A DNA stretch of 64,000 nucleotides from the NCBI RefSeq assembly GCF_003790525.1, contig NZ_CP033635.1; one strand, given 5' to 3'. This document shows, piece by piece, positions 35,280-44,009 of this stretch (position 1 is its first letter; each line of letters begins with the position of its first letter). Source of the DNA: Escherichia coli. GTDB taxonomy: Bacteria; Pseudomonadota; Gammaproteobacteria; Enterobacterales; Enterobacteriaceae. Under the pieces are notes generated by a model. That model made no database searches, was not told the DNA's origin, and was given only the letters and a program-made list of their open reading frames with translations. Made by a program: the position numbers and the translations under genes.

Positions 35280-37262
35280 TTAACGGCTCTGCTTTCTCAA
35301 CAAATAGATAAAATATGGCGCGCCGATAAAGGTCGACAGCAGCCCCGCCGGGATCTGGAATGGAAACAATACCATCCGCCCACACCAGTCAGCGAACACC
35401 AGCAGTAAACCACCCACCAGCGCCGAAATTACGATGTGTGGCATCGTCCGTCGAAAGCCCATCATCCGCGCAATATGCGGTGCCATTAAACCAACAAAAC
35501 TCAACGGTCCAATGGTCATTGTCGCAGTCGCTGTCAGGCAAGCCGCTAACAGCAGCAGCGCAATTCGCGTCGGCGTCAGCGCCATTCCTACGGCTCGTGC
35601 GGTATCACCGCCCAGCGGTAAAATGGTCAGCCAGCGGCGGCACAGCGGGGTAATCGCCAGCAAAATTACCATCACAATTCCCGTGCGCCAGACCTGCGCC
35701 TCGGTCGCGTTGTAGGTCGAACCGGAAATCCAGGTCAGAACTTGCGCCATTCGCGGGTCACCACTTGCCTGCAACATCATCAAAAGCATGGTGAACGCGG
35801 TACTTAACGCCATCCCCGCCAGTAACATGCGGTGTGGGGAAAATCCACCGCGTCCGGCGGCGATCATAATGATCAACAGCGTCACCGCCGCCCCGAGGCT
35901 GCCCGCGGGTAACAGCCAGCCAAAGGCATTACCCGGCACCAAAAACAGCATCAACACCACACCAAACGCCGCGCCGGAACTAATCCCCAGCACTTCCGGG
36001 CTTGCCATCGGGTTTCCGGTCAGCCGCTGAATAATACAGCCCGCCACTGCCAGCATGATGCCCGCAAACAGTGCCGCCATAATTCGCGGCCAGCGCCAGG
36101 GCATTAAATCATCGAGCAGCGCCCCGCTCGCCCACGTCCAGCCGTGCGCATCACGACCAAACGACAGCGCCACCACCACAGCCATCAACAGCAGCACGCC
36201 GCCCGCGAGGGCAAACGCCAGCACGTGTTGGCGTTCAGTCTCGACACGATCGTTGACCTTCATATCCGGCGCGCTAATGCTGCGTAAACGCGGCAGCAAC
36301 CACAGTAGCAGCGGCGCACCGATCAACGCAGTGACCGAACCGGTGGACACTTCCATCCACACGCGAGTCAGCCAGAGGATGATTTGATCGGAAAGCCAGA
36401 GGATCAGCGCACCAATCAGCGACGCCAGCATCAACCTTGGTAGCAGACGCCGCGCCCCCAGCATTTTCGCCAGCAGTGGCGCGAACAAACCGATAAAGCC
36501 GATAATCCCCACCGCGTTCACCAGCAGCGCACTGATGACAATCGCCAGCGACAACGCCGCCAGACGCGCCAGCGACAAGGCCAGCCCGAGATTGCGCGCC
36601 ACTCCATCATCAAGCCCCATCAGAGTTAACGGGCGAAGTAGCAATAACGTCAGCATCACGCCGCCCAGCAGCTGCGGCCATAAACGCTCAACGCCGCCCC
36701 AGTCGGTTTGCGTCAGCGTTCCGGTGCTCCACAGGAACATGCTTTGCAGTTGGTCATGATGGAAGATAACCAGTAACTGATTGATTGCGCCGCAATAAAG
36801 GCTCACTACCAGCCCCGCGAGGATCAGCGTTACCGGCGAAAGCCGTTTCCCCCACGCGACGCCAAAGACGATTAAGCCAACCACACAAGCCCCTGCCAAT
36901 GCAGCAAACTGGCTCGCCATAGCACCTGGGATCGCCCAGAGCGTGGTGACGGTAATCCCCAGTTGCGCGCCTGTTGCAACGCCCAACGTCGTCGGTTCCG
37001 CCAGCGGGTTACGCAGCACTTGCTGAAACAGCACGCCCACCAGCCCCAGGCCCGCGCCCACCAGCAGCGAAATCGCCAGACGCGGCAACAAGCTGTAGTG
37101 AAAAATCATCTGCTCGATGACGTCAATATCCGGCGACCAGGCGGCCTGCGCCCACTGGCTGCGCGGCAGCGCCTGCGAGAAGTTCATCCAGGTCAACGCC
37201 GCAGCAGCAACCACCAGCAGCACCAGCAATAACACCGGAAAAAGCGCAATTCGTTTACTCAC
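35280..37262 (-). CDS. fhuB: Ferric hydroxamate ABC transporter permease
   Basis: 660-aa duplicated-permease ORF recognised as FhuB; overlaps fhuD stop. Confidence 0.95.
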   Translation of the reverse strand: MSKRIALFPVLLLVLLVVAAAALTWMNFSQALPRSQWAQAAWSPDIDVIEQMIFHYSLLPRLAISLLVGAGLGLVGVLFQQVLRNPLAEPTTLGVATGAQLGITVTTLWAIPGAMASQFAALAGACVVGLIVFGVAWGKRLSPVTLILAGLVVSLYCGAINQLLVIFHHDQLQSMFLWSTGTLTQTDWGGVERLWPQLLGGVMLTLLLLRPLTLMGLDDGVARNLGLALSLARLAALSLAIVISALLVNAVGIIGFIGLFAPLLAKMLGARRLLPRLMLASLIGALILWLSDQIILWLTRVWMEVSTGSVTALIGAPLLLWLLPRLRSISAPDMKVNDRVETERQHVLAFALAGGVLLLMAVVVALSFGRDAHGWTWASGALLDDLMPWRWPRIMAALFAGIMLAVAGCIIQRLTGNPMASPEVLGISSGAAFGVVLMLFLVPGNAFGWLLPAGSLGAAVTLLIIMIAAGRGGFSPHRMLLAGMALSTAFTMLLMMLQASGDPRMAQVLTWISGSTYNATEAQVWRTGIVMVILLAITPLCRRWLTILPLGGDTARAVGMALTPTRIALLLLAACLTATATMTIGPLSFVGLMAPHIARMMGFRRTMPHIVISALVGGLLLVFADWCGRMVLFPFQIPAGLLSTFIGAPYFIYLLRKQSR

Positions 37263-38149
37263 GCTTTACCTCCGATGGCGTTATCCAGAATACGCACAAA
37301 GTGCATTGCAGAAAGCGTCGCACCATAGAACCAGACCGCCGGAACGCGCTGAAAGCGTCCGGCGCGGACAAACGGCATGGCCTGCCACAGCGGGGTTGCC
37401 ATTAGGGTGTCCATGTCTTTGCTGTTGTCGTGATCAAAACAGAGCACATCAACGTCTTTATACGCTGCCAGACGATCGATACTGACAGCGGTACTGCCCC
37501 AGAAGTTGGTTTCCCCTTGCCAGGCATTTGGGATGCCGTACTCATCAAGAATTTCCTGGAACAGGCTGTTTGGACCGAAGACCAACATATGGCGCGGATC
37601 GATAAGTGTCGTCAGCAATAACGGGCGTGCACCACGCTTCACAAAGCGGGGTTTCATGCTGCGGATAAAGTCTTCATAGTGCGCTAAATGCGTTTCTGCT
37701 GCGCTTTGCAGGTTAAGTAAATCTGCCATTTCCGTCAGTGATTTACGCGCCATCGCCAGCGGCTGTTTGCCATCGCTGAAGTTAAATCCGCGCCCCGGCG
37801 CAATGCGTGCCAGCATTTCTGGTGAAGGGCCATATCCTGCCGACCAGACCATAAACGATGGTTTCATTTCGGTCAGCAGTTCAAGGTTAGGTTCTGTGCG
37901 CAAACCGACGTCGATCACTGAGTCCGGCAATGGTGGTTCGCTGACCCACAGGCGATAGTTGATGGTATCCGCCACGCCGTAAGGCACGATGCCGAGCGCC
38001 AGCAGTAATTCCACCGGCAACCACTCCAGCGCCACAATACGATTGGGATCAATAGCCGCCGCGTGGGCGGTATTCATCTGCCATAACAACGGAGAAAGCG
38101 CCATCGCCGTTAACAGTCGACGGCGCGAAATAAGAGGTAAGCCGCTCAT
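37259..38149 (-). CDS. fhuD: Ferric hydroxamate periplasmic binding protein
   Basis: ORF track gives 297 aa (MMSGLPLISRRRLL...); the second Met gives the 296-aa FhuD; start overlaps fhuC stop. Confidence 0.9.
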   Translation of the reverse strand: MSGLPLISRRRLLTAMALSPLLWQMNTAHAAAIDPNRIVALEWLPVELLLALGIVPYGVADTINYRLWVSEPPLPDSVIDVGLRTEPNLELLTEMKPSFMVWSAGYGPSPEMLARIAPGRGFNFSDGKQPLAMARKSLTEMADLLNLQSAAETHLAHYEDFIRSMKPRFVKRGARPLLLTTLIDPRHMLVFGPNSLFQEILDEYGIPNAWQGETNFWGSTAVSIDRLAAYKDVDVLCFDHDNSKDMDTLMATPLWQAMPFVRAGRFQRVPAVWFYGATLSAMHFVRILDNAIGGKA

Positions 38150-38946
38150 CAATAAACAAAACTCACAGGTGCAGCACCCGCCGGATGCGGCAAAATACCC
38201 ATCGGGATGCCATAAATCATTTCAAGGGTTTCGCCGCGCATAATTTCCGCAGGCGTTCCCTGAGCAATCATTTCACCACCGCGCAGGGCGACCAGATAAT
38301 CACAGTAGCGTGCCGCCATATTGATATCGTGCAACACGGCAATGACCGTCAGGCCACGCTCCTGACTTAAACGGTGCACCAGCGCCAGCACATCAACCTG
38401 GTGGGCGATATCCAGCGCCGAGGTCGGTTCGTCGAGCAACAGACAACGGCTATCCTGTGCCACCAGCATAGCGATCCACGCCCGCTGACGTTCGCCGCCA
38501 GAGAGACTATCGACCAGCCGATGCGCCAGCGGTTTTAAGCCAACCAGCGAAATCGCCTCTTCGACCTTTTCGCGATCTGCCGCACCAAAGCGCCCCAGTG
38601 CGCCATGCCACGGGTAACGACCAATCGCCACCAGTTCACGCACGGTCATCCCTTCTGCCGGAGGAAGCTGCTGCGGCAAATAAGCCACTTTGCGGGCAAA
38701 CGCTTTGCTGCTCCAGCTTTCCAGCGGCTGGGCATCAAGGAGAATCTCCCCTTCCGACGGTGGCTGGTGACGACCAAGCATTTTGAGCAGAGTGGATTTA
38801 CCAGAACCGTTGTGACCAATCAGACCGGTCACTTTCCCGGCAGGAAAGGTTAACGACAGCGGATGCAAAAGCGTGCGCCCGGGCACACGAAAGGAGATAT
38901 TACGCAGTGCAAAAGTGGTATCGGAATGATTCGTGTATTCCTGCAT
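38149..38946 (-). CDS. fhuC: Ferric hydroxamate ABC transporter ATPase
   Basis: ORF track gives 279 aa; known 265-aa FhuC begins at internal Met (MQEYTNHSDTTFALRNISF...); Walker A GHNGSGKST present. Confidence 0.93.
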   Translation of the reverse strand: MQEYTNHSDTTFALRNISFRVPGRTLLHPLSLTFPAGKVTGLIGHNGSGKSTLLKMLGRHQPPSEGEILLDAQPLESWSSKAFARKVAYLPQQLPPAEGMTVRELVAIGRYPWHGALGRFGAADREKVEEAISLVGLKPLAHRLVDSLSGGERQRAWIAMLVAQDSRCLLLDEPTSALDIAHQVDVLALVHRLSQERGLTVIAVLHDINMAARYCDYLVALRGGEMIAQGTPAEIMRGETLEMIYGIPMGILPHPAGAAPVSFVY

Positions 38947-38996: not shown

Positions 38997-41255
38997 TTAG
39001 AAACGGAAGGTTGCGGTTGCAACGACCTGACGTTCTGCGCCCCAGAAGCAGCCATAGGTGTTAAAGCAGCTGGCGACGTATTCACGATCGAACAGGTTGT
39101 TGACATGCAGCGCCACGTTGGAGCCAGCCATGCCGACTCGCGCCAGATCATAACGCACTAACGCATCCACGACCGTATAACTTCCCACTTTAAAGGAGTT
39201 AGCCGGATCACCATAGCTGGAGCCAGTATAACGACCACCGGTGCCCAGCGTCAGACCTGAAAGCGGACCGTCAAAGAAGGTATAGTCAGCCCACAGCGAA
39301 GCCATGTGTTTTGGCACCTGTGCAGGCGTATTGCCTTTATAGGTAGTGTCGGTGGTGTATTCCGCATCGGTGTAAGTATAAGAACCTACTACGTTAACAC
39401 TCGCCGACAGCGCCGCTTTTGCTTCCAGTTCTACACCACGAGCGCGAATCTCACCGCCTTCAATCGAGAAATTGGGATTATTCGGATCCGCCATCAGGTT
39501 GTTGGTTTTGGTAAGCTGATACAGTGCGCCCGTCAGCACAATTGGGCGATCTTCCGGCACATATTTCACACCAACTTCATACTGTTTGCCTTTCGAAGGT
39601 GCAAACAGATCACCGTTTGCATCTGTCAAAGATGCTGGCTCAAACGACTCACTGTAGCTGAAGTAAGGCGTTACCCCGTTGTCGAACAGGTAGTTTACGC
39701 CACCACGCCAGGTGAACTGTTTGTCATCACGATCGGATTTATTACCGTAATCACGGTTGAAAGATGACTGTTCCGCCCAGTCATAGCGACCACCCAGAGT
39801 CACCAGCACCTTATCCCACTGCGCCTGATCCTGAACATACAGACCGGTTTGTTTCTGTTTAAGCAAAACGCGGTATGGGCCAGACGGATCCGGGTGAGCA
39901 CCAAAATCAAAGTCACTACGGTCTAAATTATAGATATCAGACGGTGCAACGGAACCGGCGTAACCGAACCAGGAGTCAATATCATTACGCATACGCATAA
40001 AGTCAACGCCGGTCAGCAGAGTGTGTTCAACCGAGCCGGTTGCGAATTTACTTTGCAACTGAGTATCAACAGAGAAGTTTTCTAATTTCTCATTATCGAT
40101 AACGTACTGACGAGTCAGTGTATGATTCCATTCTGACTGCGGGATACTTAAACATGGACTCGCCTTGAGTGCATCGTCGTCTTTGGTATACAGCGGATCC
40201 GAGCACATGCCGTAGCCATATACGCTCTTTTGCGAGACTTTATTTTGCGCAAAGCGCAGGTTCTGACGCACAGTAAAGGTGTCGTTAAATTCGTGATCGA
40301 AGCTGTAGCCCACCATCTTCTCATTACGAGAATAGGTGTTGTTCTTCGCCCCTTCATTAAAGTCTGTCGGCAGACGCTTACCGTTCGGCAGCGGCTCAAC
40401 GGTTCCCTCTTTCGGCAACCAGCCGTAATAACCGGTTTCCGGTTCGTTCTGGAAGTAAGAAAGGAAAGTGAAATTGGTTTTATCATCCGGGCGCCAGGTG
40501 AACGCTGGAGCAATAGCATAACGCTGCTCTTCTGCCCCCTTCTGCTGAGCATTGGCTGAACGCGCAATACCAGTCAGACGATAAGAGTAAACGCCGTCAT
40601 CATCCAGCGCATCACTGAAGTCAAAACCAGTCTGGAACAGGCTGTCAGTACCGGCTTTAAACTGAATTTCTTTCAGCGGTTCTGTAGTCGGGCGCTTGCT
40701 GACCATGTTCAACAGGCCGCCAGGGCTGCTTTTCCCGTACAGCACGGATACCGGACCACGCATGATTTCAGCGCGCTCCAGCATATACGGATCGATAACT
40801 GCATCGTTATAGAAGTTGCCCTGCATCTTCAGGCCATTCAGATAGTTGTTCTGGCTTTGGCCGTCAGCGGCAAATCCGCGGATGATCAGGTAATCGTAAG
40901 TGTTGGATGCGCCACGAGTTCCCACGGCAACGCCAGGAGTGTAGCTAAGAGCTTCTTTTACCGACTTCGGCTGATGCAGCGCCATCTCTTCGGCGGTCAC
41001 AACAGAAATAGACTGTGGCACTTTTTGAATCGGCGTATCGGTTTTAGTGCCGGTAGCGGACTGTCGCGCCGCAATAGTTGCAGCTGGCCCCCATGCGCTT
41101 TCTTGCGGCGCAGGTGCAGCGGTAACGGTGATAGTGTCTTCTTTCGGTTCAACCGCTGCCTGTGCATAAACAGACATGCCGCTAACCGCTGTGGCTACTA
41201 CAACTGCGATTTTACGCAGTGAGTGTTTTGGCTGAGCAGTTTTGGAACGCGCCAT
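38997..41255 (-). CDS. fhuA: TonB-dependent ferrichrome outer membrane receptor FhuA (phage T1/T5/phi80 receptor)
   Basis: 752-aa ORF with signal peptide, TonB-box region, plug and beta-barrel ending in F; N- and C-terminal regions match FhuA while central predicted-loop segments differ from the K-12 allele as I recall it (see findings). Confidence 0.93.
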   Translation of the reverse strand: MARSKTAQPKHSLRKIAVVVATAVSGMSVYAQAAVEPKEDTITVTAAPAPQESAWGPAATIAARQSATGTKTDTPIQKVPQSISVVTAEEMALHQPKSVKEALSYTPGVAVGTRGASNTYDYLIIRGFAADGQSQNNYLNGLKMQGNFYNDAVIDPYMLERAEIMRGPVSVLYGKSSPGGLLNMVSKRPTTEPLKEIQFKAGTDSLFQTGFDFSDALDDDGVYSYRLTGIARSANAQQKGAEEQRYAIAPAFTWRPDDKTNFTFLSYFQNEPETGYYGWLPKEGTVEPLPNGKRLPTDFNEGAKNNTYSRNEKMVGYSFDHEFNDTFTVRQNLRFAQNKVSQKSVYGYGMCSDPLYTKDDDALKASPCLSIPQSEWNHTLTRQYVIDNEKLENFSVDTQLQSKFATGSVEHTLLTGVDFMRMRNDIDSWFGYAGSVAPSDIYNLDRSDFDFGAHPDPSGPYRVLLKQKQTGLYVQDQAQWDKVLVTLGGRYDWAEQSSFNRDYGNKSDRDDKQFTWRGGVNYLFDNGVTPYFSYSESFEPASLTDANGDLFAPSKGKQYEVGVKYVPEDRPIVLTGALYQLTKTNNLMADPNNPNFSIEGGEIRARGVELEAKAALSASVNVVGSYTYTDAEYTTDTTYKGNTPAQVPKHMASLWADYTFFDGPLSGLTLGTGGRYTGSSYGDPANSFKVGSYTVVDALVRYDLARVGMAGSNVALHVNNLFDREYVASCFNTYGCFWGAERQVVATATFRF

Positions 41256-41293
41256 TGGTATATCTCTGATGTAAAGTGAATGATAACGTAAAC

Positions 41294-41326
41294 GAGAATG
41301 ATTATTATAAAGATAAGATAATATTC
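41294..41326 (-). promoter_or_regulatory. Fur box-like sequence in the fhuA promoter region
   Basis: GAGAATGATTATTATAAAGATAAGATAATATT resembles the GATAATGATAATCATTATC Fur consensus, 40 to 70 nt upstream of the fhuA ATG. Confidence 0.5.
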
Positions 41327-41433
41327 GAAACGCTGGCGGGTTCGCAAGCGGTACGCAATCTGAGCGTTCCTGAAGGGTTAATAAACAACCAGATGAAAAG
41401 AAAGGGTTAATACTTTAGGTGGGATGTTATTTT

Positions 41434-41458
41434 ACCGGATGGCTACTCGCCATCCGGT
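41434..41458. repeat. Perfect 10-bp inverted repeat between the mrcB stop and the fhuA promoter
   Basis: ACCGGATGGC-TACTC-GCCATCCGGT; flanked by A/T runs in the wrong orientation for a minus-strand intrinsic terminator. Confidence 0.35.
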
Positions 41459-41474
41459 ATGTCACGCTTAGACG

Positions 41475-44009
41475 TTAATTACTACCAAACATATCCTTGA
41501 TCCAACCGGCTACACCGTCGCTGTCTTTCTGCTCTTGCTGAGCAGGTTGCTGTTGCGGCTGTTGCTGCGGCTGAGAAGACTGATCAAACGGATTGCCTGA
41601 CGGCTGCTGCTGCATCTCACTCTGCTGGCACAGCGATTGCGGATCGCTGGTCCAGACCGGCAAGACACGCATACCACCGCTGCAAACAAAGTTGCCGTCG
41701 TAGTCCACGCCCATATCTGCAATATCTTCCGGCGGAACAAGATTCAGCGGTGTTGGCGTCTGGTTAGCCAGATAACGCTGATAAATCGACATTGCCCCGC
41801 TGGCTCCATACAGTTTGGTCGGTTGGTTGTTATCACGGCCTACCCAGGTGATGGTCACCGTGCTGCCGTCAATGCCCGCAAACCAGGTATCTACGTTATT
41901 GTTGGTAGTTCCTGTTTTCCCTGCCAGATGCAGGTTCGGGTATTTCGCCCCAAGCTGACGCCCCGTACCACGTTGTACCACCTGCTGCATGGTCCATAGT
42001 GTCAGATACGCCGCCTGCGCCGGAACCGCGCGTTCCGCCTGCGGGAAGCTCTGATACAGCACTTTGCCATCTTCCGCAATTACCGAACGCAGCGCAGAAA
42101 GCGGTGCACGGTTACCGCCGCTGGCGATAGTCTGGAATGCCTGCGCCACTTCGATTGGCGTTAAGTTCAACGCCCCCAGCAGCATCGCCGGAACCGGATG
42201 CAGCTGATCTTTCGGCACGCCCAGTTTAATCCAGGTCTCCGTAACCGCAGGCAGCCCCAGCGCCATCCCCAGATTCACCGTCGGCACGTTCATCGAACGG
42301 GTCAACGCATCCACCAGCATCACTCTGCCACTTTCGCTATAACGACGGTCATCGTTCTGCGGTGACCAGACCTGGCCATTCGGCTGACGCAGCGCGATGG
42401 GCGCATCGGCAATCCACGTGTTCAGGCGATAGATTTTCGGCTGGCTTAAGGCAGTCAGATAAGTCGCTGGTTTTGCGAGGGAACCAATCGAACGACGCGC
42501 CTGCATCGCACGGTTGTAGCCCGCAAACTGCGGCTCAGAACCACCGACCATCGCACGAACTTCACCGCTAAAGCGGTCAACAACCACAATCGCGGTTTCA
42601 AGATCGCTCAACTTACGCTGTTTTTTCAGTGCCGGAATGCCTTCCACGGCGGCTTTTTCTGCCGCGTCCTGGGCCACCGAGTCAAAGGTAGTGAAGATCT
42701 TCACGCCGGAGAGATCTTTTACCTTATCGCCTAATTTAGCCTGAAGCTCCTGGCGCACCAGTTGCATAAAGGCTGGCTGAGGAGAGATCACCCCACCGCG
42801 CGGCTGAACACCCAGCGGACGTGCACTCAACATGTCATAGAGTTCTTGATCAATAATCTGTTGCTGTTGCAGCAGACGCAGTACCAGGTTACGTCGCTCC
42901 AGCGCCAGTTTCGGGTTACGCCACGGGTTGTAGATGGACGCCCCTTTCACCATACCCACCAACAGCGCCTGCTGATCGAGGCTCAATTCTTCTACCGGGC
43001 GACCAAAGTAATACAAGCTCGCCAGCGGGAAGCCGCGGATTTCGTTGTCGCCGCTCTGACCGAGATACACCTCGTTCATATACAGCTCAAGAATACGGTC
43101 TTTGCTGTAACGCGCGTCCATGATCAGCGCCATGTAGGCTTCGTTCGCTTTACGCCAGTAAGAACGCTCGCTGGAGAGGAACAGGTTTTTAACCAACTGT
43201 TGCGTCAGCGTACTCGCCCCCTGCACCGTGCGTCCGGCAGTCAGGTTTGCCAGCACCGCACGTCCGATTGAGTAGAGACTGATCCCATCATGCTCGTAGA
43301 AATGACGGTCTTCTGTCGCCAGCAAAGTATCCACCAGCAAATCCGGGAAACCACTGCGCGGCACAAACAGACGCTGCTCACCGTTTGGTGAAGAGATCAT
43401 AGTGATCAGGCGCGGATCAAGACGGAAGAAACCGAACTGACGGTTGTTCTCCATATTGACGATCGTCGCCAGATGATCGCCATCAAAGGTCAGACGTGCA
43501 CGCACCTGCCCTTCTTTACTGTCCGGGAAATCAAACGGACGGCGGATCATCTCAATGCTGTTGGCCTGCACGGTAAATTCGCCAGGACGGGTCATTTTCG
43601 ACACCTGACGATACTGGGTCGCCTCCAGCAGATTCACCATCTCGTTCTTGCTGATGGTCATGTCTGGCTCAAGGTTGACCATCCGGCCATAAACTGCCGC
43701 GGGCAGTTGCCAGACCTTGCCATCAATACGGCTGCGAATTTTTTGATCGAGATAAACGCCGTAAATGGCGATCAGCACGGCAAAAACGATAGCCAGTTTT
43801 AGCAGCAGCCATAGCCAGCCGCGTTTGCCACGAGGCTTACGCCCTTTGCCTTTGCCCTTACCTTTGCGCGGCATCGGTTCTTCATCCTCATAGTCATCAT
43901 AATCGTCGTAATCATCGTCATCTTCGTAACGACGACGGCTTACCTTTTGTTTGACCGGACGCGTCGGTTTCCCTTTGCGTCCAATTGGCTCGCGGTCATT
44001 CCCGGCCAT
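41475..44009 (-). CDS. mrcB: Penicillin-binding protein 1B (bifunctional glycosyltransferase/transpeptidase)
   Basis: ORF track gives 849 aa ([10 protein letters not shown]...); known 844-aa PBP1b begins [15 protein letters not shown]; acidic/basic N-terminal cytoplasmic tail and Q-rich C-terminus present. Confidence 0.93.

Follow-up and report, generated by a model that had tools for sequence, protein, structure and literature searches.

The A+T-rich stretch upstream of Escherichia coli fhuA as the very probable Fur operator of the fhuACDB promoter

The DNA analyzed here, a 64-kb stretch that we call the window, is part of the E. coli chromosome. Over 801 bp around the Fur-like stretch, its sequence shows 100% identity to strain SMS-3-5, and this piece is matched in 5424 of 5426 complete E. 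coli genomes. According to the RefSeq annotation of the identical SMS-3-5 region, the gene order is mrcB-fhuA-fhuC-fhuD-fhuB, followed by hemL; the five genes from mrcB to fhuB lie on the minus strand of the window and hemL on the opposite strand. The fhuA coding sequence (752 aa), the first gene of the regulated operon, runs on the minus strand from its ATG at 41255 to 38997. The downstream operon genes fhuC, fhuD, and fhuB occupy 35280–38946 on the same strand (SMS-3-5 RefSeq annotation converted to window coordinates), and mrcB ends at 41475. The fhuACDB genes form the ferrichrome receptor operon, Fur is an iron-sensing repressor, and the repression of fhuACDB by Fur is textbook knowledge. 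The window and K-12 MG1655 show no difference from about -160 to the fhuA ATG, so Fur experiments carried out in K-12 apply to exactly the sequence present here. FhuA has 752 residues in this window versus ~747 in K-12 (our own arithmetic from the gene at 167484–169727), and in ~11% of the matching E. coli genomes, less than 80% of the 801-bp mrcB-fhuA query is covered. Both observations fit the known allelic diversity of fhuA, a phage and colicin receptor gene.

A first-pass annotation, made from the letters of the sequence, had pointed to an AT-rich, Fur-like stretch within 41281–41330, about 40 to 70 nt upstream of the fhuA start. The 32-mer that it quoted, GAGAATGATTATTATAAAGATAAGATAATATT, occurs once in the window, at 41294–41325 on the plus strand, and measurement places it 39–70 nt upstream of the fhuA ATG (-39 to -70), in agreement with the annotated distance. 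The stretch was scored with a 19-bp Fur matrix built from 16 K-12 sites, each footprinted or gel-shifted, with fhuA left out. The sites were taken from Table 4 of Chen et al. 2007 (PMC2189734), their sequences were fetched from NC_000913.3, and each coordinate shift was verified by the published spacing between site and gene start. The consensus of the 16 extracted 19-mers is AATGATAATCATTATCATT, as expected for Fur.

The top match to this matrix in the whole 64-kb window, ranking first of 63,982 positions with 20.4 bits, is TATAATAATCATTCTCGTT, a 9-1-9 inverted repeat on the minus strand at 41309–41291 that spans -54 to -36 relative to the fhuA ATG and is centered at 41300 (-45). We take this sequence as the main Fur dimer site. 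The exact score distribution gives a P of 7.5e-8 per position for 20.4 bits, or ~0.005 expected matches per window. At 75% A+T, the expected number rises to 0.5 per 64 kb but is 0.0016 in the intergenic region upstream of fhuA. A matrix score had been proposed as a check on the annotation: the leave-one-out scores of the proven sites extend from 16.5 to 29.0 bits, and the fhuA site, scored with the fhuA-free matrix, is 12th of 17, inside the range of experimentally bound sites as a Fur box should be.

The matrix also delimits the operator within the stretch. The main site at 41291–41309 extends 3 nt past the quoted 32-mer on the ATG side. A weak second site overlaps it on the minus strand at 41297–41315 (centre 41306, -51, 3.6 bits), 6 bp upstream of the main site, and every other 19-mer across 41270–41330 scores below 0 bits with the Fur matrix. 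The distal part of the quoted stretch (41310–41325) has negative matrix scores, and the high-affinity Fur site is only the ATG-proximal half of the stretch.

The annotation had described overlapping GATAAT-like hexamers, and this description stands. The in-phase array GTGAAT GATAAC GTAAAC GAGAAT GATTAT TATAAA GATAAG ATAATA lies at 41276–41323 on the plus strand, and the best 4-, 5-, and 7-unit in-phase arrays of the window are all located at fhuA, with 19/24, 23/30, and 31/42 matches, respectively. The best 4-unit array is GAGAAT GATTAT TATAAA GATAAG; for 7 units, the mean across the window is 14.2 matches (sd 3.1). A Fur box of the hexamer model, which consists of at least three adjacent in-phase GATAAT-like hexamers, is thus present at fhuA. 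The distal half of the quoted stretch is negative by the matrix and includes an unconserved segment at 41310–41317: the GATAAG of this half falls in that segment, and the exact GATAAT at 41317–41322 (plus strand) corresponds on the coding strand to a conserved TATTAT. Matching to the classical 19-bp consensus, GATAATGATAATCATTATC, was dropped in favor of the matrix and the hexamer arrays; the fhuA stretch reaches 14/19, a tie with five other places in the window, so the classical consensus alone would not have convinced. Consensus matching mispredicts Fur sites, according to Chen et al. (PMC2189734).

Elsewhere in the window, the second-best Fur match is a near-palindrome, ATTCAGAATGATTCTCAAT, at 19996–20014 (centre 20005, 17.5 bits). 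It falls in the intergenic region between map and rpsB, with the ATG of map (methionine aminopeptidase) 85 nt downstream, at 20090, and coincides with a ChIP-exo Fur peak assigned to map (K-12 189588–189600; PMC10164565). This map site is known but little discussed.

Published work on the identical K-12 sequence places Fur at the fhuA site both in vitro and in vivo. Chen et al. 2007 (NAR 35:6762; PMC2189734, Table 4) reported the strongest fhuA site, of 19.5 bits, at K-12 167439, -45 from the start codon, and coordinate mapping converts this position to 41300 of the window. In the same study, the fhuA cluster comprises three overlapping sites over 31 bp, and a gel shift with 150 nM Fur was positive. 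Shultzaberger et al. 2007 (NAR 35:771; PMC1807945) described two fhuA Fur sites, of 10.7 and 19.5 bits, that overlap a 7.3-bit promoter. By ChIP-exo, Gao et al. 2023 (PMC10164565) detected Fur regions at 167456–167466 in MG1655 and at 167456–167468 in W3110, in iron-replete cells only. RNA-seq in the same work found fhuACDB derepressed in delta-fur strains, with a log2 change of fhuA of 1.07–5.0 in eight of nine strains, those with a value. Beauchene et al. 2015 (PMC4676285) showed that Fur represses a fhuA promoter-lacZ fusion. A ‘fhuA promoter’ discussed in PMC3621691 was set aside as evidence, as it concerns Vibrio cholerae fhuA. The iron repression of fhuACDB through Fur that the first-pass annotation expected is thus borne out by gel shift, ChIP-exo occupancy, and delta-fur derepression; the comparison with published binding, which it had proposed, leads back to the gel-shifted site at K-12 167439 (-45) within a promoter occupied in ChIP-exo, and no Fur DNase I footprint at fhuA was found in the accessible literature.

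The ChIP-exo peak and the matrix site are close neighbors. In window coordinates, the peak lies at 41273–41283; it does not overlap the matrix site, and its center is shifted from that of the site by 22 bp towards the ATG. We compared twenty peak/site pairs between the ChIP-exo set and published sites and found offsets of -13.5 to +28 bp, with peaks of 11–13 bp mostly displaced by 9–28 bp. Because such offsets are usual in the dataset, the peak gives occupancy and not fine position: it backs the presence of Fur at the fhuA promoter but cannot refine where the protein sits. The possibility that the real Fur site lies elsewhere, under the peak, was rejected on account of the comparable offsets at footprinted sites and the lack of any positive matrix score there.

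Conservation was followed within E. coli and across genera. Of 5426 complete E. coli genomes, 5421 contain a single copy of the 61 nt at 41270–41330, and in 4124 of these the copy is identical. The cross-genus scan, run on a species genome collection, was anchored on the FhuA TonB-box coding sequence and not on the Fur site. This anchor gave 24 genome matches, of which 3 were chance matches in unrelated metagenome-assembled genomes and were dropped; the remaining 21 are enterobacterial orthologues from Escherichia, Citrobacter, Enterobacter, Lelliottia, Atlantibacter, Klebsiella indica, Pseudenterobacter, and Cedecea. A Fur site of 15.9–20.4 bits is found upstream of fhuA in 21/21 orthologues, and at -44 to -48 in 20/21. 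Judged from these alignments, the fhuA operator keeps both sequence and position in orthologous promoters, as a Fur box should. The promoter of Cedecea sulfonylureivorans has a different layout, with an insertion relative to the other genera, and carries two Fur sites, one at -32 (17.8 bits) and one at -50 (14.7 bits); Fur control in this species appears to be kept via a rearranged operator.

On the coding strand, the alignment contains a nearly invariant block, (T/C)ATAATAAT(C/A)ATT(C/A)TCGTTTACGTTATCATTC, at 41309–41277, flanked by variable bases. Further upstream, TTGC(G/T)A (41347–41342), CGTTTCG (41332–41326, minus strand), and ATATTAT (41324–41318) are conserved across genera, and CTTATCTT (41317–41310) varies freely. 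CGTTTCG sits in the spacer between a candidate -35 and -10 element and is accounted for by neither the promoter hexamers nor the Fur matrix. An Rfam scan of 41150–41550 on both strands returned no RNA family at E ≤ 1, so nothing suggests that the conserved block corresponds to a known RNA element.

The ATG-proximal portion of the invariant block brings in a second regulator. HypT (YjiE) represses the fhu operon under hypochlorite stress, and Jo et al. 2019 (PNAS 116:3740; PMC6397515) found TTACGTTATCATTCA and AACCCTTCCTTTTCA of the Salmonella fhuA promoter protected by HypT in DNase I footprints. The conserved block beside the Fur site, TTACGTTATCATTCA at 41277–41291 on the minus strand, is identical to the proximal Salmonella footprint, and AACCCTTTCTTTTCA at 41408–41394 equals the distal one with one mismatch. 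It could be argued from these two matches, and from the position of the ChIP-exo Fur peak (41283–41273) over the proximal HypT sequence, that the conserved block is mainly a HypT operator and that Fur acts elsewhere. However, the proximal HypT site shares only base 41291 with the 19-bp Fur site and cannot, therefore, account for 41292–41325. Moreover, no 19-mer centered at 41270–41290 has a positive Fur score, and HypT binding was shown in Salmonella, not in E. coli. We consider a HypT operator in place of a Fur operator very unlikely. Instead, the two operators appear to be neighbors, neither replacing the other, and, by its sequence, TTACGTTATCATTCA looks like a separate operator next to the Fur site and not an alternative reading of it.

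Upstream of the promoter, a distal block, ATTAACCC...TTTTCATCTGGTT.TTT.TTAA.CCCT, at 41373–41411 on the minus strand (~-120 to -155 from the ATG), is kept in most enterobacterial genera. It contains a direct repeat of TTAACCCTT, and its portion at 41408–41394 is the distal HypT match. Beyond it, just past the mrcB stop, lies a strong hairpin, ACCGGATGGCGAGTAGCCATCCGGT, at 41436–41460; a 59-nt piece folds at -24 kcal/mol (z = -5.8). The coding strand continues after the hairpin with AAAATAAC and not with a U run, whereas several other genera have a canonical terminator, with a GC stem and a T run, at this place. Transcriptional read-through from mrcB into fhuA is conceivable in E. coli because the hairpin has no U run.

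Three placements of the fhuA promoter have to be considered. First, a promoter scan gave TTGCGA-N18-TATTAT with 9/12 matches, that is, a candidate -35 at 41342–41347 and a candidate -10 at 41318–41323, both on the minus strand. Of the 21 orthologues, 20 keep the TTGC of this -35, and its distance to the conserved -10 does not change. Such a promoter would start near 41311 and place the main Fur site at ~+2 to +20. Second, the start back-calculated from the HypT footprint numbering (PMC6397515) falls at 41297, with an alternative -10, TATAAT, at 41304–41309 (minus strand) inside the Fur site; the main Fur site then occupies about -12 to +7. The start used in that paper comes from a computational promoter study, and the hexamer reads CATAAT in other genera. 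Third, a -10 element (TATCAT) has been proposed at a distance of 29 nt from the ATG (PMC1807945), with a start further downstream, near 41273, and the main Fur site over the -35 region. A search of the accessible literature found no experimentally mapped fhuA start; fhuA is mentioned in PMC5389530 and PMC3130263, neither of which gives a start. Located 36–54 nt before the ATG, the main Fur site overlaps or adjoins the promoter in each placement, as would be required of a Fur box, and repression by occlusion is compatible with any of the three. Because three placements exist and neither a mapped start nor a footprint was found, we infer the geometry of occlusion, including which hexamers form the real promoter and hence whether Fur would lie over the -10 element or just downstream of the start.

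We tentatively raise one arrangement, possible but on balance doubtful, in which the working promoter would be TTGCGA-N18-TATTAT (41347–41318) and not the TATAAT in the Fur box. A Fur dimer at ~+2 to +20 would then hit open-complex formation or promoter escape instead of masking the -10 element, and the invariant 33-bp block at 41277–41309 would be a composite Fur and HypT operator in the early transcribed region. The start of the fhuA transcript would decide whether Fur hides a -10 element or blocks the polymerase just past the start.

The promoter hexamers also invite the view that the stretch is merely an A+T-rich sigma-70 promoter core, with a chance likeness to Fur hexamers that stems from the similarity of the two motifs. 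TATAAT (41309–41304) and TATTAT (41323–41318) are promoter-like, the Fur matrix gives no positive score in the distal half of the stretch, and other places in the window match the classical consensus equally well, but the 20.4 bits come from a matrix in which positions outside any -10 hexamer carry weight, and only 0.0016 such matches are expected in the intergenic region even at 75% A+T. Fur also gel-shifts this sequence (PMC2189734) and occupies the promoter in vivo (PMC10164565), and a promoter and an operator are not exclusive; at fhuA they overlap. As an exclusive explanation, a sigma-70 promoter has very little probability left and is effectively refuted, because Fur binding in vitro has already been reported.

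We hold with high confidence that the stretch is the Fur operator of the fhuACDB promoter. This operator is real, conserved, and previously described, and there is nothing biologically new about it; the case exemplifies a genuine regulatory site that a model reader could recognize from raw sequence. When iron is plentiful, Fe2+-loaded Fur dimers would bind the inverted repeat at 41291–41309 and probably extend from there to the weaker in-phase hexamers on both sides. Since the site shares bases with the core promoter and the start region, bound Fur would keep RNA polymerase from initiating fhuACDB. When iron is scarce, Fur would be released, allowing the ferrichrome uptake operon to be transcribed.

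Among known systems, the K-12 fhuA Fur cluster is the closest to the site described here. The DNA is the same from -160 to the ATG, the site is centered at -45 in front of the same operon, and the main site scores 20.4 bits here versus 19.5 bits in the published work. Nothing of substance separates the two, apart from the SMS-3-5-like background and the score of the second site, which is 3.6 bits here versus 10.7 bits published. The Salmonella HypT (YjiE) sites belong to the same promoter, and the proximal sequence, which adjoins the Fur site, is unchanged here. HypT, however, is a LysR-type protein that responds to a HOCl signal and contacts other bases, and its sites are not the feature to which the first-pass annotation pointed. 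The footprinted Fur operators of other E. coli iron-uptake promoters (fepA-fes, entC, cirA, fecI, fhuF, and sodA) share with fhuA the 9-1-9 repeat AATGATAATnATTATCATT, the overlapping sites spaced by 6 bp, and the overlap with a sigma-70 promoter. fhuA differs from other Fur operators in having one strong site with weak neighbors, in contrast to 7 sites in fecI and 12 in yoeA. It also differs in its left arm, which reads TATAATAAT in place of AATGATAAT and therefore doubles as a perfect TATAAT hexamer.
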